From NCBI RefSeq assembly GCF_000020025.1, contig NC_010631.1, positions 270,001 to 302,000 on the forward strand: a stretch of DNA of 32,000 nt, written 5' to 3'. Below the pieces are notes generated by a model. The model was not told the origin of the DNA. It saw only the letters and a program-made list of their open reading frames with translations, and did not search any database. The position numbers were made by a program, and so were the translations under genes. Origin of the DNA: Nostoc punctiforme PCC 73102 (GTDB lineage Bacteria; Cyanobacteriota; Cyanobacteriia; Cyanobacteriales; Nostocaceae). This document shows, piece after piece, positions 3,248-21,297 of the stretch. How positions within the stretch are numbered: the stretch's first letter is position 1; the number at the start of each line of letters is the position of its first letter.

Positions 3248-3397
3248 AATATCATCTTGATACTCTGATAAGTGTGATTTGAAACAAAAAATGAGATTTT
3301 AACTCATGATATGCTTCAGAAATGAGTATCCAGTTTATAGTTCACTTTTAATATTCGAGTTTTTTTACTAATAATGATTATCGTATAAGAGATAAAA

Positions 3398-3447
3398 AGC
3401 GACGTTTGTATCAATTCTTCAGAGCGACGTTTGTATCAATTCTTCAG
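3398..3447. repeat. perfect 25-bp tandem duplication (AGCGACGTTTGTATCAATTCTTCAG x2)
   Basis: Read directly: 3398-3422 is identical to 3423-3447. The pair is flanked by an imperfect inverted repeat, AATAATGATTATC (approx. 3371-3383) and GATTATCATTATT (approx. 3451-3463). Confidence 0.9.
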
Positions 3448-3772
3448 CTTGATTATCATTATTATTCAGCTACAATTTGAGTAGGCGATCGCTTAACAAC
3501 AGAGCGATCGCTTGGACAATGAAATATTTGATTTTTACTCAGATATCTACTAAAACAAAAGTTTTGAACCATAATATGGGTATTTGAACCATATTCTGAA
3601 TTGAAAGTTTAAGTTAGAGCAATTTTGTCAGGGATTTTTTGTGCAAGTTTTGTCCACTTGTGTTTTTTCAACTCATTCTCTAGTTATGATTCAGAATTTC
3701 AACTCTCACTCACAATTTGATTCAAAGTTTTAATTTTTGATTAGCGCGAAAGGCTGAATTTTCGTTAACTTT

Positions 3773-3823
3773 TGTCACTTAAAGGATATTGTGGCCGTTT
3801 TTAAAGCATAAAGTGGCCGCAGT
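3773..3823 (+). repeat. Tn7-like terminal inverted repeat, tniQ-proximal end
   Basis: TGTCACTTAAAGGATATTGTGGCCGTTTTTAAAGCATAAAGTGGCCGCAGT. It contains two GTGGCCG sub-repeats 22 bp apart, which are candidate TnsB-binding sites. Confidence 0.9.
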
Positions 3824-3857
3824 AGTAAAACCTTAGAGAAAGGCGAATAAATAAGAT

Positions 3858-5444
3858 TTACTGTGAAAGATCCAGTCTTATCTGCCTTAAAACATCAATT
3901 ACCTCAGCCTGCCACAGCAAAGAGGGATGAGGCATAAATTTTCTGAGATTTTTAGCAGTAGGGGTAATGCCTTGTGCATGAAGTACTGAAGCGAGTTGGC
4001 GTACTTCTCGACAGCCTTGCTCAATAGCTAGTTTATGGACGAATTTGCGGTAATCTTTATAGCGTAAAGAAATAGCATGGCACACAATAGGGCAATAGTG
4101 GTAGAAAGTAGCCAAACCAATACCAGTTCTCTTAGCTATTTTTCTTAGAGAAGGTGGTGGATACTCGTCGCTAAACAAAGCTAATTCAAGTATGTCTCTG
4201 ATGTGTAAAAATCTTAGCTGCTGTTGATATTCACTATATCTAGTAGCCAAAGATGCTGATAAAGATTTTGAGCAAGCAGTTAAACTACTAGGAGTTTTGA
4301 ATCCTAAACGAACAGCTAATTGAGTTAAAGAAGGAGGTGGTTCTTCTTCTTGAGCTAGTTGCATCGCCTGAATAACTCGTTCGCACTTAGGACTACTATT
4401 TGAAGTAACTAAAGCAGACTGTGATGATAATTTTTTCTGTTTAGGAGCAGGTAGAGAAACTAGCTGCTTAAGAGTAAGAGGTAGTATTTTAAGTTGAAGA
4501 AAATCGACAAGATTAGTTGATAAGGCGTAGCAGATTTTCAAAAGTTTATCTAAATTTGGGATGGCTACACCTGAATACCAATGTAGAATTTCATATCTCG
4601 ATAACCCAAGCCAACGACCAAAAGCGGAAACATTACCTTGAGTATATTGATAGACGTAAGCTTCTAGGATTGTTTTAATAGTCTCTCTTGGAGGTGGACA
4701 AGGAAATTCAGGAGCTTGAGCAATTAAATCTCCTAAAGTCTTAACTATCCAAATCTCTTGCTGTAAATTGGGTATCTCCTCGAACAATCTCTTATCTGGC
4801 AAAGATACTTCATAGTTCATCCCCAACCAACCACCACATTTCAGACAAAATCCAGGTCGTGAGTTATGCCACAGGTGTAAAAATTCAAGGTCACAGTGAG
4901 GACATTTTGATTCTAAAAATCGATAATGGATGGGACAAATGTTAGCTGGTTTCAAAGCCCACAGCAGAGGTGAATAAATGACTTGTTGATTATTTAACCA
5001 GTCTTGATAGCAATAAGGACACCAAGCATGAGAATGCTTGAGCAATCCCAAAACTGGGAAGACTTTTGCCCAAGGTAGCATTGTCAAAAACTGTAAGTCA
5101 GTACGTTTTGTCAATATTTCTAGAGCAAAAACCAGTTGTTTAGCTCCAATTTGTGTTCCGTTTAAAGCTTTTACAGAAGCTTGTCCATACAAACTTACGA
5201 TACTTTTAGAATTCAAGGGATTGGTAGTATGGTTATGCCCAACTATTGGTTTTATCTCTCTAGCCAATAAAGTTCCAGGCAATACGCTATGAGCTGCGGC
5301 TAGACGAGCAACATAGCTAGTCAGACTTTCAACATAACAAGTACCAAGTCCAATCGGTTCCAGATGAAACAACCGGCTAGGACTGGGAGTAAATTCTGGG
5401 TCTTTGAGCCACAATTCATCGTTAACCGCCATGTTAGTCATCAT
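3858..5444 (-). CDS. tniQ: TniQ family target-selection protein, long TnsD-like form (528 aa)
   Basis: The N-terminal TniQ domain has LFHLEPIGLGTCYVESLTSYVARLAAAH and Cys/His clusters (CPYC, CPIH, CPHC, CLKCG). The C-terminal half has three HTH-like units, each introduced by PPP(R/S) (PPPRETIKTILEAY, PPPSLTQLAVRLGF, PPPSLRKIAKRTGI). The start overlaps the tnsC stop by 11 nt. Confidence 0.85.
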   Translation of the reverse strand: MMTNMAVNDELWLKDPEFTPSPSRLFHLEPIGLGTCYVESLTSYVARLAAAHSVLPGTLLAREIKPIVGHNHTTNPLNSKSIVSLYGQASVKALNGTQIGAKQLVFALEILTKRTDLQFLTMLPWAKVFPVLGLLKHSHAWCPYCYQDWLNNQQVIYSPLLWALKPANICPIHYRFLESKCPHCDLEFLHLWHNSRPGFCLKCGGWLGMNYEVSLPDKRLFEEIPNLQQEIWIVKTLGDLIAQAPEFPCPPPRETIKTILEAYVYQYTQGNVSAFGRWLGLSRYEILHWYSGVAIPNLDKLLKICYALSTNLVDFLQLKILPLTLKQLVSLPAPKQKKLSSQSALVTSNSSPKCERVIQAMQLAQEEEPPPSLTQLAVRLGFKTPSSLTACSKSLSASLATRYSEYQQQLRFLHIRDILELALFSDEYPPPSLRKIAKRTGIGLATFYHYCPIVCHAISLRYKDYRKFVHKLAIEQGCREVRQLASVLHAQGITPTAKNLRKFMPHPSLLWQAEVIDVLRQIRLDLSQ

Positions 5445-6573
5445 CTGAATTTACCCCTACATCATCTCTTTTAGGTTTTCTTTGTCCAACACGACCTTTT
5501 TTGAGTAGGGAATTTTTGGCTGGCATTTTTATTCCATGTTCTGTTGAATATTGCCGCTCAAAAAAACTGGATTCTTCTTGAAAGCGTTTAAATCCCTGTT
5601 GTGCTTCTTCCTTAATTTTGTTGATACGAGATGCAGAAAAAGCACCTAATTTAAGATGTTTGCTATTAAGAGTCCGAGCTTCTTCAGAATAGGCAACTCT
5701 CAAAGAACGAGTTAACCAATTCTTCAATAGCCCCACACAACCAACTGAGCCAGAAAAAAGATACTCATAGTGTTGTTCTAATTTTGGTTCTTGTACAAGC
5801 GGAATGTGGCGTTGAAAAGTTCTAATTACTCTAATAAATTCAGCAATATCTTCTGGGTTATCAGCTTGGTAAGGTAACAGGTGAATATCTTCGCTACGCC
5901 GCCCTATTTGCCCATTCAAGGTAGGACAGTTAAGCAGTTCATAAGTTCCAAATAAAATATGTACTGTACCAGTAAGATTAGCAATAGACTTAATCCAGTT
6001 CATTTGCTGTAACATCTGGTGTCCGCCTGCCATCATAAATAAATGCTGTGCCTCGTCTACAGTAAAAGCTTTTACCTGACGATAACGAAATGCTTTTTCC
6101 ATTGCTCGGCGTAATGCGGGCGAATCTTGGCGGTAAGCCCGATTTAGCAACCCCAAATCCTTTACCTCACCGTGAGGAATTTCATAATCAATTTTGTATT
6201 CAATCAAAACTTCCTGAAGGGATTCTAGGGCGCGAGTGTAATAATCTTTATAGCTAAACTTTCCTTGTTCTGTTGGAATAGCTTCAATACCAGCAACAGC
6301 AATTTGACCAGGATTTTGGCGTAATGAGGGGAGAAATTCGTAATTTAGCAGATTTTCCAGACGCAAGCGTAAGGTTGTTTTTCCTACACCAGTCACACCA
6401 AAAACTAAAAATACTAAAGTGTCAGCTGGCTCCAGAATATTAATTAATAAAGTATCTAAGGCTTGTTTGAGCCTTTGATGTGGAATAGTGATACTTTTGA
6501 AATAATCAGTTTTAATTTCGTTCGGCTGTAAGAGAAGTTCTTCTGGAAAAGAGTGCGACTGAATTTTTACCAT
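5434..6573 (-). CDS. tnsC: TnsC/TniB-type AAA+ ATPase
   Basis: Walker A is FGVTGVGKTT and Walker B is FTVDEAQHL. The gene lies between the transposase and tniQ, and its start overlaps the tnsB stop by 7 nt. Confidence 0.85.
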   Translation of the reverse strand: MVKIQSHSFPEELLLQPNEIKTDYFKSITIPHQRLKQALDTLLINILEPADTLVFLVFGVTGVGKTTLRLRLENLLNYEFLPSLRQNPGQIAVAGIEAIPTEQGKFSYKDYYTRALESLQEVLIEYKIDYEIPHGEVKDLGLLNRAYRQDSPALRRAMEKAFRYRQVKAFTVDEAQHLFMMAGGHQMLQQMNWIKSIANLTGTVHILFGTYELLNCPTLNGQIGRRSEDIHLLPYQADNPEDIAEFIRVIRTFQRHIPLVQEPKLEQHYEYLFSGSVGCVGLLKNWLTRSLRVAYSEEARTLNSKHLKLGAFSASRINKIKEEAQQGFKRFQEESSFFERQYSTEHGIKMPAKNSLLKKGRVGQRKPKRDDVGVNSDDD

Positions 6574-9176
6574 AGCTCCTCTGTATTGTAAGCTTCTATT
6601 TTGGTTAAATCTATTAATTTTTTTGCTGATGATTTTGGCTTTTTAATGCTTTCTGAACCTGCCAAAATATTTTTATCTACATCTTGAACATTAGCTGAAT
6701 AATTGTGTTTACTTAATTTACTTTCAATAACTGAGCTTTTTTCAATTAAAACCCAAATATCTTGTTGTGCTAAATCATGTAAGCGTTGTAATAACAAAGT
6801 TTCTTGGGCTTCAGTTCCTTCTAAATATGTAGCTTTTTCTTGGGCAGATAGAGTAATTCTTTGAGCGTGTTTCTGCCTTTTTCGACGTAATTGTGTGCTG
6901 GCTATGTTCACTTCTTTTTCGGAACGATTTTGGAAGGATTTGTAATGTTCAGAAATACAGCGTATCCAACGTCCCTTAACGTAAGCATAAGCAGTCCCCA
7001 TATCAAAAGGGTCGTAACGAATAGGTACATTAGTTCCTTCAATTTCTGGTCTTATGAACGAATCATCAATTGACCAATAGTAGAGATAATTAATTTTCAC
7101 GCCTCTACTTGGTTGAACTTTTGCAGTTCCTTTAGGTGTAGAAGGTAAGGTAAAAATCTTAAAATTATCATCATAAATAATCTGTTTCTGAGGGCGATAA
7201 CCACTTGAATTTAGCCCTGACATAAAAGTTTGACGTGGGCTTTGTCCTAATGTTGGATGTTCTCTGCAATCATAGAATTCGTAACAATATGAACAAAAGT
7301 TTTCGTAGAGTTGATCTAGTGTCCAAACAGCTTGATTTTTGGGATTATTTGATTTCGTGACTTGGCGGACATTCTTAGTAATTTGAGTGTTGCCTCTAAG
7401 ATTATAAAAAAACTCTGTATTTGTAGTTCCAAAAATACGTTCAATAATTGAACCAAATCTGGCTTTCGCAGCTGGTCGCTGCTTTTTGGTACATTCAAAA
7501 GCCGCTAACAAGGTCTCAAAGTATGTACTACTAAATTCTGTCCCACCGTCAACAACTATTGTCTCTGGTAATTTCTCAAATCGCTGTACGCAGATTCTTA
7601 ATACCATCATGCAACTACGGTAGCTTGGCTCGTCAAAAGTTAGGTAAACTGCGAGAATACGTCGGCTGTAAGCATCGATTAACAGAGTTGCCCAAGGTCT
7701 ACCAAGAAGATAACCTGTTCGGGAGCATACTAACTCAATATCCAGTTGCGTATGGTCAATGTGTGCTATCTCAAATGGACGGTCGCCATGACATGGTGTG
7801 GTTAATTTCAACTCCCAATACAATAAAGATTGTTGATAAGCTGCTCTGTTTCCCTTACGTTTTTTTGTTTGCCTATAACCAGAACGATGTTGAATTCTAG
7901 AACAAAATGTAGCGTAGCTAGGCAGCTTATCTGTTAGACCTGCTTTCTCCCATTCTCTTGCTAGAATTCCATAAACAGCTAGTTTGCTTCTTTGTTGAAA
8001 AGTTTCATAATATTCTTCAATTATTTTGTCAATGAAATCTTGAGACGATTGAGAAATTCTGGGTAAGCGATTGCCTCTAGCATTAGAGTTATTTAGCAGC
8101 CCAATATAACCACATTTGTACGCCTTTTGTGCTGCTATAAACTTAGCCTTCCATCTGCGAATAGTACGTTGTGGAACAGTTTCTTTATCTCTATAACTGT
8201 CATTAAGATAAGGTTCAATTACTTCATATCTTCGGTTAGCTTCTGCCAAGTCTTCAGGACTAGCTCTCAAAAAACGCTCCATTGCTTTTGGAGACATTTT
8301 TACTTGATTATGAGTTTTAGGTTCCAGTTGATTGGGTTTAACATCTAAAATATTCAGAATCGTTCCATTATTCGGTTGCGATTTTATCATTTGTACATAA
8401 GCTACCGCGATTTCTTGGTCACGGAAAAGCTGTACTTTTTCTGGCTCTGCTAAGGGTGCGGCACTCAAATTAATGTAAATTTTTTTTGTAGCTATTAAAG
8501 CATTTATGTCATCAGGATTGCTCTGTTGAGTATGAATCATTTCCCAATAACTTATGCCCGGATTTAAGCTAATTAACTTCACCAAATTTTCAGCTATTTC
8601 TGGGTCAATTTGGTAATCTTCAGTAGTATAGGCTTTGAGAAATAGTCGATTTCTGTATTTAATCCAATCAATTTCTGTATCTAACCGAATTCGGTAATAC
8701 AGTCCTAATTTTTCTGCATAAGCAACTGCTGGCAGGTTTAACCACTGCCCATCTTCTGAACGCATATAACGTTGTGATTGTTTAGCTGCTAATTTTTCTA
8801 ATCTTGATTCTGGTTTCCACTCTTCAAAACCTGCACTCCGCTTCCGAATTACGAAAAAGTCTGGTATATGCGAAGCTTTGATTATTTCCCCACTGCTTGA
8901 GGGGAATTCTAGAGTAATTTGATATGCTTGGTCGTAGTATTCGAGTACATCTGCGTCTTCTTCGTACTCCTCTACACCTGGCAATTCAATTTTATGGGAC
9001 TCAAATTGAATAGTTTTTCCCATTTTGCGACTGGCGTAGTCGCCCCGGACATTTATACCACTGCTTTTGACTCGCCGAATTGGTTCAGAGGCACGGATTT
9101 GGGAAATTAATTGCCTAGCCTCTTGTGGTAAATTTACGCCGCGACACCAATCATTAAACTCTTGGTCGCTCAACAT
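6567..9176 (-). CDS. tnsB: TnsB (Mu/retroviral-type DDE transposase) with an N-terminal TnsA-like endonuclease module (869 aa from the ATG)
   Basis: DDE triad candidates are AHIDHTQLD, TIVVDGGTEF and IIERIFGTTNTEF. A Mu-transposase C-terminal motif is present (VKINYLYYWS...VPIRYDPFDMGTAYAYVKGRWIRC). The N-terminal approx. 130 aa carry PD-(D/E)xK-like motifs resembling TnsA: FESHKIE, DADVLEYYDQ, HIPDFFV and FEEWKP. The ATG at 9176 is preferred over the GTG at 9218 used by the ORF track. Confidence 0.85.
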   Translation of the reverse strand: MLSDQEFNDWCRGVNLPQEARQLISQIRASEPIRRVKSSGINVRGDYASRKMGKTIQFESHKIELPGVEEYEEDADVLEYYDQAYQITLEFPSSSGEIIKASHIPDFFVIRKRSAGFEEWKPESRLEKLAAKQSQRYMRSEDGQWLNLPAVAYAEKLGLYYRIRLDTEIDWIKYRNRLFLKAYTTEDYQIDPEIAENLVKLISLNPGISYWEMIHTQQSNPDDINALIATKKIYINLSAAPLAEPEKVQLFRDQEIAVAYVQMIKSQPNNGTILNILDVKPNQLEPKTHNQVKMSPKAMERFLRASPEDLAEANRRYEVIEPYLNDSYRDKETVPQRTIRRWKAKFIAAQKAYKCGYIGLLNNSNARGNRLPRISQSSQDFIDKIIEEYYETFQQRSKLAVYGILAREWEKAGLTDKLPSYATFCSRIQHRSGYRQTKKRKGNRAAYQQSLLYWELKLTTPCHGDRPFEIAHIDHTQLDIELVCSRTGYLLGRPWATLLIDAYSRRILAVYLTFDEPSYRSCMMVLRICVQRFEKLPETIVVDGGTEFSSTYFETLLAAFECTKKQRPAAKARFGSIIERIFGTTNTEFFYNLRGNTQITKNVRQVTKSNNPKNQAVWTLDQLYENFCSYCYEFYDCREHPTLGQSPRQTFMSGLNSSGYRPQKQIIYDDNFKIFTLPSTPKGTAKVQPSRGVKINYLYYWSIDDSFIRPEIEGTNVPIRYDPFDMGTAYAYVKGRWIRCISEHYKSFQNRSEKEVNIASTQLRRKRQKHAQRITLSAQEKATYLEGTEAQETLLLQRLHDLAQQDIWVLIEKSSVIESKLSKHNYSANVQDVDKNILAGSESIKKPKSSAKKLIDLTKIEAYNTEELW

Positions 9177-9286
9177 ATTGGCCCCCAAGCTTTTAAAGCC
9201 GCAACAAGCTCTTACCACAAATCTAGGCTTTCGCCAGTTAAACAGTCTTTTATTGATATAAATATTTATACTTACCAGTTCAGATG

Positions 9287-9337
9287 ACTGCGGCCACTTT
9301 ATGGTTTAAAAACGGCCACAATATCCTTTAAGTGACA
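9287..9337 (-). repeat. Tn7-like terminal inverted repeat, tnsB-proximal end
   Basis: The reverse complement is TGTCACTTAAAGGATATTGTGGCCGTTTTTAAACCATAAAGTGGCCGCAGT, with one mismatch to the other end. Confidence 0.9.
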
Positions 9338-9352
9338 ACTTTTTTCTAATTT

Positions 9353-9559
9353 ATGGATCAAAATTTTTCTCACATTATGATTCAAAGCATACTTAATCCT
9401 TTGCCGCGTAAACGCTGGGAGCAAACTTCAGCCTGGACAATTGACGCAGTACTCAATGGCAAAATGTTAACTTATGAAAGAGCGAGTCTACTAACAGCAG
9501 CACGGGTAATTCCACAAGAGAATATGATTAAGACATGGCAAATGTACACTCACTTATAA
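9353..9559 (+). CDS. hypothetical 68-aa ORF beside the transposon end
   Basis: ATG-started ORF beginning 15 bp from the transposon end and overlapping the next gene by 25 nt. No motif recognised, and it may not be coding. Confidence 0.3.
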   Translation: MDQNFSHIMIQSILNPLPRKRWEQTSAWTIDAVLNGKMLTYERASLLTAARVIPQENMIKTWQMYTHL

Positions 9560-11193
9560 ACCAGCCCAATAAAAGAGACGATTTAACAGCTCGCCGCATT
9601 CGATTTTTTGAAGGACGCTACGGAACTAATGCGCTCTTATTGGCTTGTCATGCTGCTTTTCCCCTTACCCTCACTTCAGATTTACTCTACTGTTTGCGTG
9701 AGAATTTTGTTCTTGATGCCCCTTGGTATGCAGTCGCTGATGTGTTGTTATCAGGGTTATGCCAACCTGTAGGATATGACCTTTATGAAATGGAAGGTGA
9801 AACTAGAGATGGCTTGCTGAGTCGTTTATGTGAGCATTTTGGAGAACAGCGACTTAAGGAACTGGCGAATTTTATGTCTGCGTATATTACCTGTCGCTTG
9901 CAGGTTGAGAATAATGACCGTGCTTTGGTATTTGGACAACGCCCAGACTGGACAGCATTAGCATACTTGAGTTCAGATAAGCAAGAGGTAATTAACGCCA
10001 TAACGCAGGAGTTGCGAAGATTGACAGCTTCCACAGATGCTAAAGAGCGTATCAGATGGGCAGCTTTAATAGAAAATTATGCTGACCTATTATCACAAAA
10101 AGGTTTTGAGCCATTGTTGTTGGAATTGTCACAGCAAGCACTCAATGGCGAACCCATACAGGATGAAGAGGAGAAAGAAATTGCCGCAGCAACGGGAGTT
10201 TCGTTGCAAACTTTTGAATTTGACGTGACAACTATCATCTTAGACGATGAGCCAGGGGAAGAATTGCAAACTTTTGAGTTTGACACCGTAACAGTAGATG
10301 CTCGTGGAAAAGTAATTAACAAAGAACGAAAGCAAGCATTTTATTTTATTGAGTTTTTGGGTGAAGCAGCAGGAAAGCCATCAAAACTCTTGATAGAGAT
10401 GGTAGCTATTCCTGGAGGAACTTTTGAAATGGGGTCGCCACCAGATGAGCCAGAACGTTATGATGATGAGAATCCCCAGTATAGAGTCACTGTGCAGCCG
10501 TTTTTCTTGGCTAAGTATCCAGTCACTCAAGCGCAGTGGCAATTTGTGGCGCAGTTACCCCAGGTAAATCGGGAGCTAGATCGAGATCCATCTGATTTTA
10601 AAGGTGCAAACCGACCTGTCGAAAATGTCTCTTGGTACGATGCGGTTGAATTTTGCGATCGCTTATCTCAGTATACAGGTAGACCATACACCCTCCCTAG
10701 TGAAGCAGAATGGGAATATGCGTGTAGAGCCGGAACAACAACTCCATTCCATTTTGGCGAAACGATAACGTCAGATTTAGCTAACTATGATGCTAGGAGT
10801 AGATTTGACGGCAGTGAAGGACTTTTTGATGATATGCAAGGCAACTTTGATGATGGATCGAAAGGAATTTATCGAAAAGAAACAACAGTTGTAGGCAGCT
10901 TCAAAGTTGCAAACGCCTTTGGATTATACGATATGCACGGAAACGTATTGGAATGGTGTTTTGATGATTGGCACAGCAACTATGAAGGTGCGCCGATAGA
11001 TGGCGGTGCTTGGTTTGATGATAATGATAATATTTACCAAAAACGAGGAGCAGCCGTTCTGCGGGGCGGTTCCTGGATCGGCAATCCTGATTTCTGCCGT
11101 TCCGCATCCCGCGACAGCGGCAGCACGCGCGACTACCACTTCAACTATTTTGGTTTTCGTGTTATGTGCGGAGTTGGGAGAATTCTTCAGTAG
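9535..11193 (+). CDS. two-part protein: N-terminal helical domain of unknown function plus C-terminal FGE-sulfatase (SUMF1/C-type-lectin fold) domain
   Basis: The C-terminal approx. 260 aa have FGE-sulfatase hallmarks: IPGGTFEMGSP, RVTVQPFFLAKYPVTQAQW, PVENVSWYDAVEFCDRLS, YTLPSEAEWEYACRAGT, NAFGLYDMHGNVLEWC, LRGGSW and GFRV. This is preceded by a duplicated LQTFEFD linker that I recall from cyanobacterial members of the family. Confidence 0.85.
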   Translation: MANVHSLINQPNKRDDLTARRIRFFEGRYGTNALLLACHAAFPLTLTSDLLYCLRENFVLDAPWYAVADVLLSGLCQPVGYDLYEMEGETRDGLLSRLCEHFGEQRLKELANFMSAYITCRLQVENNDRALVFGQRPDWTALAYLSSDKQEVINAITQELRRLTASTDAKERIRWAALIENYADLLSQKGFEPLLLELSQQALNGEPIQDEEEKEIAAATGVSLQTFEFDVTTIILDDEPGEELQTFEFDTVTVDARGKVINKERKQAFYFIEFLGEAAGKPSKLLIEMVAIPGGTFEMGSPPDEPERYDDENPQYRVTVQPFFLAKYPVTQAQWQFVAQLPQVNRELDRDPSDFKGANRPVENVSWYDAVEFCDRLSQYTGRPYTLPSEAEWEYACRAGTTTPFHFGETITSDLANYDARSRFDGSEGLFDDMQGNFDDGSKGIYRKETTVVGSFKVANAFGLYDMHGNVLEWCFDDWHSNYEGAPIDGGAWFDDNDNIYQKRGAAVLRGGSWIGNPDFCRSASRDSGSTRDYHFNYFGFRVMCGVGRILQ

Positions 11194-11335
11194 CCCTTTA
11201 GCCCTTTACTCTTCTTTTTTTTGCCCTTTGTTAGCGAAGCGGAGAGTTATCAAATTTTTTTCAAAATTCAAGCTAGGAAAAGAATAAACGCCAATTGAGC
11301 GAGAAAGTTAAGCAAGAAGATACACATAAAAATTA

Positions 11336-12187
11336 ATGGTAAAAATACTCACTAAACGACAAACAGCGCAATGTTTTATCGAAGACTTGGGCAATGGAAT
11401 TAAACTAGAGATGGTGCTGCTGCAACGTGGTAGTTTTCTAATGGGCGCTCCAGAAACAGAAGAAGGAAGCAGTGATGATGAACGTCCTCAGCACGAAGTA
11501 ACTGTTCCAACTTTTTTTATAGGCAAGTATCCACTCACTCAAGCACAGTGGAAAGCAGTAGCAGCACTACCACAGGTTAACAAAGAGCTAAAAGCTAAAC
11601 CATCGCGTTTTAAAGGCGCAGATCGCCCTGTTGAGCAAGTTTCTTGGGAGGATGCGGTTGAATTTTGCGATCGCCTGACTGCCCATACTAAAAGACAATA
11701 CCGCCTGCCTAGCGAAGCCGAATGGGAATATGCCTGTCGTGCTGGAACTACTAGCCCATTTCACTTTGGCGAAACAATTACGACCGATTTAGCTAATTAC
11801 CAAGGTACAGATAACAAAGAATATGAATGGTCGGGTTCTTATGGACGAGGGCCAAAAGGTATCTATCGACAAGAGACTACGCCTGTGGGCAGTTTTGGGG
11901 TAGCTAACGCCTTTGGATTATACGATATGCACGGAAACGTATGGGAATGGTGTCTCGACAATTGGCACGACAACTATGAAGGTGCGCCTATAGATGGCAG
12001 TGCTTGGCTTAATGATAATAATAACTTTTCTCAAAAAAAAGAAAATGCTGTGCTGCGGGGCGGTTCCTGGCTCGGCTATCCTTATGACTGCCGGTCTGCG
12101 TCCCGTGACTACTATTGGGCGGGGCGCGACATCATTCTCTACACTATTGGTTTTCGTGTTGTGTGCGCTGTCGGCAGGATTCTTTAG
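11336..12187 (+). CDS. stand-alone FGE-sulfatase (SUMF1/C-type-lectin fold) domain protein
   Basis: Same motif series as the upstream gene: FLMGAPE, YPLTQAQW, PVEQVSWEDAVEFCDRL, YRLPSEAEWEYACRAGT, NAFGLYDMHGNVWEWC, LRGGSW and GFRVVC. It is clearly a paralog of the 9535-11193 C-terminal domain. Confidence 0.85.
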   Translation: MVKILTKRQTAQCFIEDLGNGIKLEMVLLQRGSFLMGAPETEEGSSDDERPQHEVTVPTFFIGKYPLTQAQWKAVAALPQVNKELKAKPSRFKGADRPVEQVSWEDAVEFCDRLTAHTKRQYRLPSEAEWEYACRAGTTSPFHFGETITTDLANYQGTDNKEYEWSGSYGRGPKGIYRQETTPVGSFGVANAFGLYDMHGNVWEWCLDNWHDNYEGAPIDGSAWLNDNNNFSQKKENAVLRGGSWLGYPYDCRSASRDYYWAGRDIILYTIGFRVVCAVGRIL

Positions 12188-13665
12188 TCGCCACGAATTG
12201 GTAATTGCGAATTGGAGATGACACTGCTTATAAGTGGGGATGGGAGCGAGTCGCAGATTATGCCATCAACACAAGCAATTCCCCACTGCGGAAACTTCGC
12301 TAATAGTTTTTTGATCACGATCTGTAAGGTCGGATCATCATTCCAGCATTTTTGGAGGAAGTCAAAGCCCGGATTTTCCCCAACCAGAGAAGCCATCTTC
12401 AGTTTCTCCATTCGCAATAGTCTAGTCTTGGATCTCATGGCGATGTCTTCAGAGCTAAACAACGCCTCACTAGATTTTTGCACCTGATAATTGACTACAG
12501 ATATATTCCACTGTTTCTCAAACTTGCTGATTGTTGCCCTCATACTGGCGTAATACTTGCTGTCTAGCAAATATTGAATTACCCACAATGGGGGGCATTC
12601 TCCTGCATCTGCTCGATCTAACCATTCAAATATCTCACTTTGAGTTAATGACACCGGCGCGGCGGAACAAGTGCCTTCATGACAGTCCCTCGCCTCAACA
12701 CCACAATCTTGGTTTTCAACTAACAACGGAGCGGAATTACTTTGTTCTGCTTGCCTCTGTGTTTGATTAGCGATCACAGAATTTAAAGATTTTTCATTTT
12801 GGGCGACGGGCGCGGCGGAACAAGTACCTTCATGAGGGGATATCGCTTCAACACCACAATCCTGGCTTTCTCCTATCGACAAAGCAGATTCACCCTGTAC
12901 AGCATCCACAAGCGTCAGTGATGTACAATCCATTGCCGTAGGCAATTCTTCAAGTTCTGACGCGCTTTCGATACGTTGAGGCGACGCGCCCCCCAAGGGC
13001 GCATGAGCCGTTTCTTCAACACGCGGATTTTCAGTTGGCGCGTCAGAACCAACTACCATACCAACAACCTTAGTTGGTTGTTGGTAGGTAGTTAACGGGT
13101 AGTTAGAAACGTTGTTAGGATTTTGGAACCCTTGCAAATCCTCACTTTTTTGACCATTCTTTTGGAATGATTCCAAATCAGACTGAATTTGTTCCACGCC
13201 AGGGTAATTTTCATTCCGTCCGGGCGCATTTGTTTCCTCCCCGGCGTGGACGGCTTTCTCGTCACAAAAATTGGTTTCCTCAGACGTGGATGATTCCCAG
13301 TAAAAACGATTGTAATAACCGCGCAAGTTACGGACACGGTAGCTAATCAATCCTGGTCTACCAGAAGGTAAGCGACCAAATACTTCCTCAAATTGAAACA
13401 ATCCTTGAGCGCTTAACGCCGCCCCTGCTTTTTGCAAAGATTTGTAGGTGAGGTTAGTATCGAGTTTATGAGCAGAACCCCCGAATTGTTCAGCCGCCAC
13501 GCTATCCAACCAAAGCTGCTGCACAGATGGAGGCTGTTGACGAACCCAGTTGATATCCTCAATCGATACCTTGCAATGTGGTCTAATCGATTTATCTGCT
13601 TCAGCAAGTTTCCGCTCGTTTCGTTGTTGGCTACCACCGTTGATTGCTTTTAACGCTGTAGTCAT
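12184..13665 (-). CDS. multi-domain protein: N-terminal wHTH/Rep-like region, two HEGTCSAAPV repeat units, C-terminal KFPQWGI module (493 aa)
   Basis: The ATG at 13665 is preceded by AGGAGG and is preferred over the track start at 13704. An internal 51-aa repeat is present (CGVEAISPHEGTCSAAPV / CGVEARDCHEGTCSAAPV). The C-terminal module is shared with 489-998 and 2002-2272. The Rep-like assignment is inferred only from context and a basic N-terminus. Confidence 0.7.
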   Translation of the reverse strand: MTTALKAINGGSQQRNERKLAEADKSIRPHCKVSIEDINWVRQQPPSVQQLWLDSVAAEQFGGSAHKLDTNLTYKSLQKAGAALSAQGLFQFEEVFGRLPSGRPGLISYRVRNLRGYYNRFYWESSTSEETNFCDEKAVHAGEETNAPGRNENYPGVEQIQSDLESFQKNGQKSEDLQGFQNPNNVSNYPLTTYQQPTKVVGMVVGSDAPTENPRVEETAHAPLGGASPQRIESASELEELPTAMDCTSLTLVDAVQGESALSIGESQDCGVEAISPHEGTCSAAPVAQNEKSLNSVIANQTQRQAEQSNSAPLLVENQDCGVEARDCHEGTCSAAPVSLTQSEIFEWLDRADAGECPPLWVIQYLLDSKYYASMRATISKFEKQWNISVVNYQVQKSSEALFSSEDIAMRSKTRLLRMEKLKMASLVGENPGFDFLQKCWNDDPTLQIVIKKLLAKFPQWGIACVDGIICDSLPSPLISSVISNSQLPIRGD

Positions 13666-13756
13666 ATTTCCTCCTAAATTTTTCCATGACAATGTGAGCG
13701 GCATGGTTGCAATGCCACGTTTAAGTTTTTTGGCTCTTCTCTTAGCGAGTCTTTAT

Positions 13757-15337
13757 CTACTGGTTTTCGCCCTGCCAAAACCGCAACTCTTCCCTGGAAT
13801 AGCTTTGAGTCTTTTTCAACTCATTGCGCCAGTGATCCCAGGCGACAACTACTTTGCCCCCTACCTCCTCTACAACTTCGCCCCTCTGCAAATACAGAGT
13901 CCGGTACGGGTCAGCATGAGCAACAATAGAACCGATGCTAATTGTCTGAGGTTCAGTGGATGAGTTTTTGAGAGTTTTAATTAACTCTGTTTCCTGGGTA
14001 GTAAGTTCTGCCCAGTAATCCGACTTAATTACCTCATACTCTTGCGCCACTGCCCAATAGTCCTGCCACGTACACCCAGGCTTTGCAAGCACTGACCTAA
14101 TATCACTAACCGCCTGGGGTAACATCGACAACTGCTCGGCACGGTAAGCGATCGCAGTTAGTGTAGGTTCGCTCCCCAAAATTATCGCCGCTGCTTCGAG
14201 TGCTTGGGTGTTGTTCATAGCACTGGCGAGATTCTTCAACGCCATGCCCATGAGCCGCAGACATTCTTGGGCATTTTCTTTGGGTGGTTCAATTGCTAGC
14301 GATCGCAAATCAATGGTTTTCTCTAGGGCTTGTTTAACTTGCTTGTTCAACGCTTTAGTTGCTTGCTGGGTCATGGTATTTCCCCACTGTTGAGAAGGAC
14401 GTTCTTCTACGGCGTGTTCTAATTCCTGAATACGAGAAAAGAGTTTTTGATTTTCAATCTCCAGTTTCCTCAGCCCTTGCATCTCGTCCAATTGTTGCTG
14501 CAACTGAATATTCTGCTCTTTCTGTTGCTTGTACAGGTTTTGGAGGGATTGGATTTGCTCTTGCACTTGGGCTTCGGCTCTAGTAGCTGCTTCTGTTTGT
14601 AGTCCAATTCTCAATTCCTGGGAAAGTCGCTCTAACTCTTGCTGATGCTGTTCTTTAATTTGAGCGATCGCTTCCGTATATTCTGGTGGATAGTTCTGTT
14701 CTCTGGGGAATGGGACACTTGCGGCATCTAGATCCCCATTATTGACCAACAACCTCTCACCATCAGCAAAGGTAACAATCTGCTGCCAATGATTTGGTGC
14801 GTCTGCTGAGATCACTCCTGATTCCCCATAACGAGGGTGTTCTGGTGATGAAACTGTGACAGAATTACACAATTGCGTTTGGCTTTGTTCGCTTTTTGTA
14901 GAGCGTTTAACTGTTGGTGCAACCTCTTGCACCGCTTTGGCGAAGTCTGCGGCGGTGGGAAAGGGTTTTTCTTTGGCTGCGATCGCAACAGCTTGCTCTA
15001 ACTTATCGGGAGTTTTGACCAGTCGGAGCAAGGAGCGAGTTTGAGAGGGTTTGGTAATATGCGGCCTCAGTTCTTCTGGTAATGTATCAACTACTCGCTT
15101 GGCCGCAAATAGATCCTTGACCCGGCGATATCCCCCGTGTTTGGTCAACTCACTTTCGCAATAAGCTTCAAAGCTCTTGTGTCCACCATCTTGGTAATAG
15201 CCTTTGTCTCGCATCAGCCGCAGTTCATCAGATGCTTGCCACTCAAAACGGTCGATGGCGGTGAAGGTATCCAGGATACCGTTGTTCAATTTGGTGTAGT
15301 CGAGTGCTGATGTTTGTTCGGCTTCTAGTGTCAGCAT
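13757..15337 (-). CDS. coiled-coil protein with N-terminal DUF3102-like DNA-binding region and C-terminal SH3-like tail (526 aa)
   Basis: The N-terminus (FEAYCESELTKHGGYRRVKDLFAAKRVV) resembles plasmid/phage HTH proteins. A long Q/E/L-rich heptad region follows (QELERLSQEL...QQQLDEMQGLRKLEIENQKLFSRIQELEH). The gene is co-oriented with the 493-aa gene and 91 bp upstream of it. Confidence 0.65.
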   Translation of the reverse strand: MLTLEAEQTSALDYTKLNNGILDTFTAIDRFEWQASDELRLMRDKGYYQDGGHKSFEAYCESELTKHGGYRRVKDLFAAKRVVDTLPEELRPHITKPSQTRSLLRLVKTPDKLEQAVAIAAKEKPFPTAADFAKAVQEVAPTVKRSTKSEQSQTQLCNSVTVSSPEHPRYGESGVISADAPNHWQQIVTFADGERLLVNNGDLDAASVPFPREQNYPPEYTEAIAQIKEQHQQELERLSQELRIGLQTEAATRAEAQVQEQIQSLQNLYKQQKEQNIQLQQQLDEMQGLRKLEIENQKLFSRIQELEHAVEERPSQQWGNTMTQQATKALNKQVKQALEKTIDLRSLAIEPPKENAQECLRLMGMALKNLASAMNNTQALEAAAIILGSEPTLTAIAYRAEQLSMLPQAVSDIRSVLAKPGCTWQDYWAVAQEYEVIKSDYWAELTTQETELIKTLKNSSTEPQTISIGSIVAHADPYRTLYLQRGEVVEEVGGKVVVAWDHWRNELKKTQSYSREELRFWQGENQ

Positions 15338-20922: not shown

Positions 20923-21297
20923 TCAGGCACTCAATGATTCCGGTTCTGTACGTGATATTTCCAAAACTCGCTGTAACCAGTATGAAATTTGAGCAGATGC
21001 AGATTGCTTTTGTTCAGCATCAGTCCAGATATCGTCCCAATGGAATAGCCAACGAGTTAGAAGACGAACTAAATCAACTAACTCACAGGCTCGGTCAATA
21101 TCATCTGCCTTTACCATGTCTGGCACAGTCCACTCAACAAAGTATCTGCTTTCATCAATCAAAGCCAGTATTACATCCGCTGATGAGCCTTGAGTCCACA
21201 AAGATTGAATTTGTGACAAGTGTGTAGCTAGACGACGTAAACGTGTAGTCACATCATCTTGCATAAAAATTTGTTGCTTTGGTGTCACTTCGATCAT
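20923..21297 (-). CDS. hypothetical helical protein (124 aa), partner of the DUF5674 gene
   Basis: Its start overlaps the stop of the upstream minus-strand gene (ATGA at 21294-21297). It is preferred over the antisense ORF at 20868-21227 because of this coupling. Confidence 0.6.
   Translation of the reverse strand: MIEVTPKQQIFMQDDVTTRLRRLATHLSQIQSLWTQGSSADVILALIDESRYFVEWTVPDMVKADDIDRACELVDLVRLLTRWLFHWDDIWTDAEQKQSASAQISYWLQRVLEISRTEPESLSA

Follow-up and report, generated by a model that had tools for sequence, protein, structure and literature searches.

Tn7-family transposons attract interest for their tight choice of target, and forms guided by CRISPR are being developed as tools for genome insertion. 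The system closest to the one described here is PmcCAST, the type I-B2 CRISPR-associated transposon (CAST) of Peltigera membranacea cyanobiont 210A, whose TnsAB–TnsC–TnsD homing module has been solved (PDB 8V32 and 9BW1) and whose TnsD homes downstream of tRNA genes (PMC11915506), the gene being tRNA-Val according to PMC11837452. Cargo-free elements built from TnsAB, TnsC and a TniQ/TnsD protein are already known in cyanobacteria. The array-targeting family of Chacon Machado and Peters (2025) carries TnsAB, TnsC and TnsD without cargo, is often multi-copy and insertion sequence (IS)-like, and targets CRISPR repeats (PMC11837452), while Tn5469 of Fremyella diplosiphon is described, in the passages that treat it, as having a TnsAB fusion, no cargo and one TniQ (Hsieh and Peters, PMC9881144; PMC11406308). 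In the 'res hunter' Tn5053, a single TniQ targets res sites (PMC11406308). Here we analyse a 32,000-nucleotide stretch of Nostoc punctiforme PCC 73102 (contig NC_010631.1, positions 270,001 to 302,000; hereafter the window) that contains a 5,565-bp Tn7-family transposon inserted within the end of another one. We consider it likely that this is an autonomous, active, IS-like element nested in an older transposon end, and that its family uses the ends of resident transposons as attachment sites.

The element, its ends, its genes and the flanking duplication are as follows.

3773–9337: Tn7-family transposon of 5,565 bp, with 51-bp terminal inverted repeats and TGT...ACA tips.
3768..3772: left copy of the target-site duplication, ACTTT, read directly.
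9338..9342: right copy of the target-site duplication, ACTTT, read directly.
3773..3823, plus strand: left (TnsD-proximal) end, with the TGTCACTT tip and two 17-nt TnsB-site-like repeats at 3781–3797 and 3803–3819.
9287..9337, minus strand: right (TnsAB-proximal) end, a second copy of the 51-nt module, whose repeats lie at 9329–9313 and 9307–9291.
6567..9218, minus strand: tnsAB, a TnsA endonuclease fused to a TnsB DDE transposase, 883 amino acids from a GTG start at 9218.
5434..6573, minus strand: tnsC, a 379-amino-acid AAA+ adaptor with a Walker A motif, GVTGVGKT, at residues 59–66.
3858..5444, minus strand: tnsD, a 528-amino-acid TniQ-family target selector with two zinc-finger motifs and a duplicated C-terminal helix-turn-helix (HTH) module.

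The original prediction, made from the letters of the window, had described near-identical 51-bp ends bounded by an exact 5-bp duplication, and both features hold. Nucleotides 3773–3823 agree with the reverse complement of 9287–9337 at 50 of 51 positions, similarity between the ends is cut off sharply at nucleotide 51, and a terminal match of such quality is expected 0.00 times in shuffled sequence. The transposase-site pattern AAAGSATAWWGTGGCCG occurs exactly four times in the 32 kb (0.51 expected), twice per end at 22-bp spacing. With a single-site weight matrix, the left-end repeats reach 23.0 and 27.0 bits, where shuffled sequence gives at most 19, and no further TnsB-like site inside the element exceeds that shuffled maximum. 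The TGT...ACA tips, the repeated TnsB sites and the 5-bp duplication are those of Tn7-like transposons. The two ends do not differ in the number or spacing of TnsB sites; each is the same two-site 51-nt module. Asymmetric, orientation-setting ends are typical of Tn7 itself but do not define the wider Tn7-like family. Symmetric two-site ends had been taken as unusual, yet they are common to relatives whose TnsD is 63–68% identical, which share both the architecture and the near-perfect two-site ends (L025 and L023; those of L025 are 48 nt long and 100% complementary).

Three minus-strand open reading frames (ORFs) fill the interior, and their overlapping stops and starts (7 nt, ATGGTAA, and 11 nt) are as predicted. 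So is the lack of cargo: the genes of the element at 3773–9337 include no cas gene or resolvase, and the window as a whole contains no CRISPR array, tRNA gene or Rfam match. The Tn7-type identity of the proteins is confirmed by Pfam and PDB matches. TnsAB aligns with PDB 9BW1 chain M, the TnsAB of PmcCAST, at 2.3e-270 over residues 19–282 and 302–832, the first of these segments pairing with the TnsA part of the PmcCAST protein at 229 bits. It also matches the TnsB chains of several solved systems and the Pfam domains rve (1.5e-06) and Mu-transpos_C (1.4e-06), and identical copies carry precomputed Tn7_TnsA-like_N matches. An alternative ATG start at 9176, the choice of gene callers, would give 869 amino acids. 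The TnsA-type motif (E73, D120, E133-x-K135) and the TnsB DDE motif (D488, D557, E593) are both intact, so that the TnsA endonuclease needed for cut-and-paste movement is in place, with nuclease activity predicted. TnsC matches PmcCAST TnsC at 2.6e-90 over residues 5–377, along with AAA_22 (2.6e-14) and TniB (5.8e-07). TnsD matches TniQ (1.4e-15) and the TnsD of 8V32/9BW1 (1.1e-79), and its zinc-finger motifs are C142/C145/C170/H173 and C181/C184/C200/C203. Together, these matches and motifs place the element in the cyanobacterial TnsAB-fusion clade of the Tn7 family. Of the gene names first proposed, 'tnsB(+A)' proves to be a genuine TnsA–TnsB fusion, while 'tniQ' is better called a TnsD-type selector. 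Judged by its coding content, the element is the homing module TnsAB–TnsC–TnsD and nothing else. Tn5469, which Kahn and Schaefer are said to have described in 1995, reportedly also makes a 5-bp duplication and measures 4.9 kb, with 25-bp repeats and a 272-amino-acid third protein, compared with 5.57 kb, 51 bp and 528 amino acids here.

PmcCAST supplies the closest solved homologues of the three proteins, and with it the element has in common a natural TnsA–TnsB fusion, the gene order and the host group. It differs in having no cas genes, CRISPR array, second TniQ or cargo; of the components of a type I-B2 CAST (cas6, cas8, cas7, cas5, an array and a Cascade-coupled TniQ), none is found among its three ORFs. 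PmcCAST also homes to tRNA genes, whereas the window has none, and its TnsD is 462 amino acids long against 528 here, owing to the HTH duplication in the latter. Likeness to the array-targeting family is closer in outline, since those elements are likewise cyanobacterial and combine TnsAB, TnsC and a single TnsD without cargo (PMC11837452). Nevertheless, we rejected membership in that family on TnsD architecture, on identity and on the absence of a CRISPR array from the window. Array-targeting TnsDs lack the C-terminal HTH of about 60 amino acids (PMC11837452), of which the window TnsD has two; they are 50–90% identical to the Allocoleopsis TnsD (PMC11837452), whereas the window TnsD is 36.6% identical to it over 77% of the query (residues 8–411). 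Array-targeting elements insert in a CRISPR spacer next to the repeat, while here the recurrent target is a transposon end. In E. coli the array-targeting elements proved non-functional (PMC11837452). Tn5469, with which we compared architecture by description only, is reported as untargeted in the passages concerning it (PMC9881144; PMC11406308), which contrasts with the resident-end pattern set out below. Given the cargo-free Tn5469, as described there, and the cargo-free array-targeting family (PMC11837452), neither the minimal size of the element nor its lack of cargo can count as exceptional, as had been supposed.

The original prediction overlooked that the DNA in which the element landed is itself a transposon end. 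It belongs to a small resident element, termed A, now in two parts.

9338..9391, minus strand: end 1 of the resident A element, terminal 54 nt, with the TATGCTTT tip and two repeats 22 nt apart.
3273..3772, plus strand: the rest of this approximately 549-bp, non-autonomous, Tn7-type A element, with end 2 (TGTGATTTGAAACAAAAAATGAG...) starting at 3273; 13.0 bits with the outer-end matrix.

The transposon begins immediately after nucleotide 54 of end 1. Using a weight matrix built from the outer ends of other loci, with the window excluded (null, 0.03 matches above 10 bits per 32 kb), the flank read from 9391 to 9338 scores 19.0 bits and is the best match in the window. End 1 is 96–98% identical to copies on many Nostocales plasmids. 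The A element as a whole, 540–550 bp long with imperfect terminal repeats of about 24 nt (TATGCTTTGAATCA... and TGTGATTTGAAACA...), is found on about 30 such plasmids, usually as a single copy, at 82–97% identity. The copies compared here are those of the window (3273–3772 plus 9338–9391), L092 (7503–8043), L094 (7504–8039) and L093 (7499–7769). Two of them have 5-bp duplications of their own, ATCAG in L092 and GCAAG in L094, indicating that the A element is itself a Tn7-type miniature transposon.

Removing the transposon and one ACTTT from the window leaves a sequence that is continuous in uninterrupted paralogues. This reconstructed empty site aligns in one stretch across the junction with plasmid07 of Fremyella diplosiphon NIES-3275 (L092; 89.9% over 562 nt), and runs unbroken across it in plasmid4 of Nostoc sp. 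HK-01 (L094; 85.4% over 555 nt) and pNsp_c of Nostoc sp. ATCC 53789 (L093; 97.0% over 271 nt). A junction-spanning 160-nt query is uninterrupted in 27 of 32 plasmid records. The empty site whose existence had been set as a check on the prediction is thus present, in the form of paralogous A elements on plasmids, and the insertion was precise. We found no orthologous empty site: the left-neighbour protein has no record, and in all 4 contigs that encode the right-neighbour protein the sequence begins no more than about 220 bp upstream of its gene. One of these, L020, reaches the junction and begins inside the right end of the element, which means that its strain also carries the insertion.

The A element has some features of its own. 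A perfect 25-bp tandem duplication (AGCGACGTTTGTATCAATTCTTCAG, two copies) occupies 3398–3447, and two HIP1 (highly iterated palindrome 1) sites lie 19 bp apart at 3485–3511. A 19-mer, CTCACAWTWTGATTCAAAG, that flanks the transposon on both sides was considered as a host regulatory or CRISPR-like repeat and dropped, both copies being repeats within the A element. In L092, another cargo-free element (8098–14044; annotated genes of about 910, 389 and 526 amino acids; TGTCGGTGGAAGGATAATATTGCC ends) starts outside an A element, 61 nt from its end 2. The TGTCGGTGGAAGGATAATATTGCC type of end is seen again in L037 and L023, there as an outer end that has been invaded.

Landing just inside a resident end is a property of the family and not of this copy alone. 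One metagenome scan with the end pattern yielded 56 loci. Of 53 non-redundant flanks next to strong ends, 22 have the tip motif TGTNN[CT]T outside the junction at 52, 53 or 54 nt from it, where chance would place it in about 0.45; all other offsets, about 70 of them, account for 3 flanks. Repeat-like sites in 58 non-redundant flanks peak at 44–46 nt (27) and 21–24 nt (17) outside the junction, with 0.03 expected per offset. Inner and outer ends share their direction throughout, placing the newcomer just inside the resident's two repeats. The pattern recurs at loci reached in other ways, finished plasmids among them: a triple stack in Hapalosiphon (L085; 3995, then 4046, then 4099), spacings of 52, 52 and 53 nt on a 208-kb Nostoc contig (L084), and spacings of 50, 53, and 53 with 53 nt on the finished plasmids L088, L089 and L091, respectively. 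One and the same A-type end was hit at +51 to +54 in four independent invasions, made by three different elements (the window, L006, L085 and L091). Relatives of the window element, and miniature derivatives of about 200 bp, therefore lie 52–54 bp inside resident Tn7-type ends far more often than expected by chance, from which we infer that the resident end module is read as an attachment site.

These distributions bear on whether insertion is essentially untargeted, with nests surviving as harmless hits in dead mobile DNA. Tn5469 came to light when it inactivated a gene by spontaneous insertion, and the passages describing it call it untargeted (PMC9881144; PMC11406308); moreover, some copies of the family sit in ordinary DNA (L004 and the right flank of L025), as does L086 of a related subfamily with a 465-amino-acid TnsD. 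Survivorship cannot, however, yield a peak 3 nt wide with 22 flanks against 3, nor the peaks of repeat-like sites at 44–46 and 21–24 nt, and it leaves unexplained that one end was entered four times at one position. We thus regard untargeted insertion as very improbable. The opposite extreme, a single fixed attachment site by a conserved gene or tRNA gene, was rejected because the window has no tRNA gene and the flanks of the copies differ.

The innermost elements have their own duplications (ACTTT in the window, GTTCT in L038, TAGTA in L040 and ATTGG in L048), and pairings are mixed, in that one outer type is found with various inner elements and one inner element with various outer types. 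These data also speak to the suggestion that the outer and inner modules form one four-repeat end that moves as a unit, with no nesting at all. The modules are indeed contiguous and point the same way, and in the miniature elements of L043, L056, L037, L084 and L091 the outer modules are equidistant and inner duplications are lacking. Yet in the window, L038, L040 and L048 the inner tips are bordered by exact 5-bp duplications, and uninterrupted A elements run straight through the junction. The mixed pairings exclude a single four-repeat unit, and we give this alternative next to no credence. Resident ends are invaded either way round. In the window and L085 the incoming element turns its right (TnsAB) end towards the tip of the resident, and in L006, L001 and L084 its left (TnsD) end. 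This differs from the fixed orientation of Tn7 and related TnsD-directed elements and is expected, because the two-site ends are identical.

Among the invaders are miniature elements of 169–214 bp bounded by two inverted ends of the family, found at at least 11 metagenome loci and on several plasmids. They include those of L030, L037, L038, L040, L043, L056, L065, L071, L079 and L081, as well as L084 3421–3612, L088 7001–7200, L089 7001–7212 and L091 7001–7202; some have exact 5-bp duplications (GTTCT in L038 and TAGTA in L040). Stacking can go further. On the Nostoc contig NNBU01000189.1 (L048), an element at 7208–7771 starts 54 nt after an outer end at 7154 and itself holds a 389-bp element (7321–7709, ATTGG) 62 nt inside its right tip.

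Several observations weigh against resident ends as the attachment site of the family. The first is the double nests (L043 1314–1610, L056 1812–2130, L037, L084 3369–3664 and L091 6948–7255), in which a miniature element has outer tips on both sides, 52–53 nt away, without a matching duplication; the one in L091, on a finished plasmid, has two outer ends of different types and no duplication. Simple insertion is insufficient here, because outer ends flank both sides without a matching duplication. It is possible that an invader entered each end of a resident and that recombination then deleted the resident's interior; mis-joined short-read flanks may explain some, and only some, of the double nests and missing duplications. 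Many relatives also lack matching duplications, and no outer end is seen at L004, at the left flank of the window copy or at the right flank of L025. Three window-type copies share one position in a different repeat (...CTTAACGAAGTTATAAGTATTYCAGC...; L002 on both sides, and L015). The A element of the window has no clean duplication of its own, and most plasmid A elements, 27 of 32 records, are uninvaded. Finally, the metagenome loci come from few studies, and their independence rests on differing outer flanks only.

Two details of the CTTAACGAAGTTATAAGTATTYCAGC repeat were recorded. In L002 (1–108 and 5674–5818), it flanks the element as an imperfect palindrome of about 100 nt. In L015 (7890–8000), its neighbour is the tnsA of a degraded Tn7-like element, the window-type copy there being cut off by IS5.

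How a resident end might be recognized is suggested by TnsD. Its C-terminal HTH module forms a tandem pair, at about residues 356–414 and 415–473, and the two copies align with each other at 31% identity over 59 residues (E=2e-6). The closest shorter homologues, of about 465 amino acids and 44–50% identity, have one such module, and that of the 465-amino-acid homologue P0019 aligns to both copies; the duplication accounts for the 63-residue surplus in length. In a published series, loss of the C-terminal HTH region of TnsD accompanies the switch from tRNA genes to CRISPR repeats (PMC11837452).

By analogy with the PmcCAST TnsABCD transpososome, TnsAB would bind the two 17-nt repeats of each 51-bp end and cut both strands at the TGT...ACA tips for cut-and-paste movement; TnsD would place the TnsC AAA+ ring on the target, the ring would recruit the transposase, and staggered joining would give the 5-bp ACTTT duplication. 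The most likely reader of the resident end would be TnsD, because in relatives its target motif lies 40–50 bp from the end (PMC11837452) and because the tip and first repeat of outer ends are better conserved than the second repeat; the duplicated HTH is also suggestive. Our working model is that this clade reads resident ends through TnsD, the two HTH copies matching the two repeats, and that TnsD binds the tip and directs insertion 52–54 bp inward in either orientation, which would turn Tn7 target immunity around. We put this forward tentatively, as a plausible account whose chances fall somewhat short of even. Identical two-site ends would remove the orientation control seen in Tn7, so that either end could face the resident terminus. 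The outcome would be a safe-haven strategy, in which host genes are spared and many copies are carried per genome.

The resident end could instead be read by TnsAB. Occupying the two resident repeats, TnsAB would bring in TnsC or set its position, and insertion would fall directly beside the last occupied repeat, in what amounts to the opposite of Tn7 target immunity. Insertion occurs 0–2 nt past the second repeat plus the 5-bp duplication, resident repeats and the incoming element's sites have the core CATAA..TG in common, and at a few outer ends with one repeat the junction is about 32 nt from the tip (the left flank of L023, and L071), as though the distance were counted from the last repeat instead of the tip, all as such a reader would have it. 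PmcCAST TnsAB, furthermore, leaves TnsC rings assembled in vitro and does not dismantle them (PMC11915506), which would permit insertion beside a transposon end and fits weak or absent target immunity. Nevertheless, resident repeats are often far from incoming ones (GAATCATAATGTGAG versus AAAGGATATTGTGGCCG, about 10/15 by eye), and the one-repeat cases are few and possibly later deletions. That the tip and first repeat are the most conserved parts fits a tip-bound selector with a TnsC-sized spacer, and in related elements the target motif 40–50 bp from the end is read by TnsD (PMC11837452). Reading by TnsAB is in our view unlikely, though it is the strongest of the rival accounts.

Whichever protein reads the target, the element is very probably active at present, as the original prediction had proposed. 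The exact TnsD protein is encoded at at least four loci on one 8.23-Mb N. punctiforme chromosome (ACC84855, ACC84860, ACC84876 and ACC84998), and the exact TnsC likewise has at least four accessions on that chromosome. Several identical copies at different sites in one genome are what defines an IS-like lifestyle. In assemblies of public sequencing runs, exact TnsD was indexed in 60 blocks and exact TnsC in 46. The contigs that carry them never exceed 10 kb, and many are about 5,560 bp; short contigs ending at the element ends are the signature of an assembly-breaking repeat, seen here in dozens of runs. Being multi-copy and breaking assemblies at its ends, the element behaves like an active insertion sequence. 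Copies with 94–100% identity and different flanks occur in Hapalosiphon, in several strains of Nostoc and on a plasmid from this genus. The prediction had suggested looking for further copies, but had not itself noted that the element is multi-copy.

Taken together, the undamaged genes, the closely matching ends, the exact duplication and the presence of several identical copies make it very likely that the element is active today. They also bear on the idea of a decaying relic or an immobile, domesticated gene set. Degraded relatives do exist, such as L023 with its split tnsAB, L084 with a mutated right tip and the p057_G copy cut by IS5. With three full-length ORFs, intact catalytic motifs, ends matching at 50 of 51 positions, the exact duplication and identical proteins at at least four loci, immobility is scarcely credible for the window element.

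HIP1 is absent from the element, as predicted (18 sites outside it and none inside, where about 3.8 are expected; Poisson P about 0.02), and G+C content is 38.0% inside compared with 41.9% outside. However, HIP1 is also missing from diverged relatives, so that its absence is a trait of the lineage and gives no sign of the recent arrival that had been read into it. Minimal organization extends beyond the close relatives, since the more distant L086, with a 465-amino-acid TnsD, is likewise minimal, and its TTAAG duplication is perfect.

Several further arrangements were seen among the copies and relatives. The genes ACC84855–ACC84860 of N. punctiforme appear to be two copies side by side in inverted order (TnsD, TnsC, [TnsAB], [TnsAB], TnsC, TnsD), the arrangement expected from two insertions into both ends of one small resident element. 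In L023, whose TnsD is 68% identical, tnsAB is split by an insertion of about 1.16 kb (4129–5313) with 27-nt inverted repeats at its borders, and a solo related end lies 143 nt beyond the right end (2811).

Elsewhere in the window, the outer-end matrix has further matches at 21283 (plus strand, 15.3 bits), 31500 (minus strand, 14.7 bits) and 10127 (plus strand, 16.3 bits), suggesting more relic Tn7-type ends; the match at 10127 lies in a coding region and may be spurious. Scanning the whole window with a short single-site matrix gave too much noise for mapping relic sites and was not used. A 68-amino-acid ORF at 9353–9559 starts in the resident end and overlaps the next gene, and is unlikely to be a real gene. 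It is followed downstream by two paralogous genes with FGE-sulfatase domains (9535–11193 and 11336–12187; 552 and 283 amino acids).

Within the limited collection of literature that could be searched, we found no report of a Tn7-like element that uses transposon ends as its target, of Tn7-family miniature elements in cyanobacteria or of a duplicated TnsD HTH. Three aspects appear to be new: landing 54 bp inside an A-element end with empty sites on plasmids, the terminus of another transposon 52–54 bp outside the junction in 22 of 53 flanks, and the miniature derivatives of about 200 bp together with the duplicated TnsD HTH module. Tn5053 resembles the present case in preferring a fixed position at a functional site of another mobile element, but there the site is a resolution site. 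IS30 inserts next to its own inverted repeats and so shares inverted-repeat targeting, but it belongs to another enzyme family and has no TnsC or TniQ.

With a core machinery like that of PmcCAST reduced to three proteins and 51-bp ends, the element is among the smallest natural test beds for such machinery, and its identical ends, found in both orientations, offer a natural experiment on how end asymmetry sets orientation. If resident ends are indeed its attachment sites, they would form a new target class beside glmS, tRNA genes, comM, res sites, CRISPR repeats and telomeres, and the family would contain an example of a transposon end that draws insertions to itself, where the ends of Tn7 keep them away. 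Reading of resident ends by TnsD, if true, would explain why ends are stacked in nests, why resident interiors are lost and why copy number is high in Nostoc, and targeting of this kind would give a simple account of the harmless stacks of mobile elements in Nostoc genomes.

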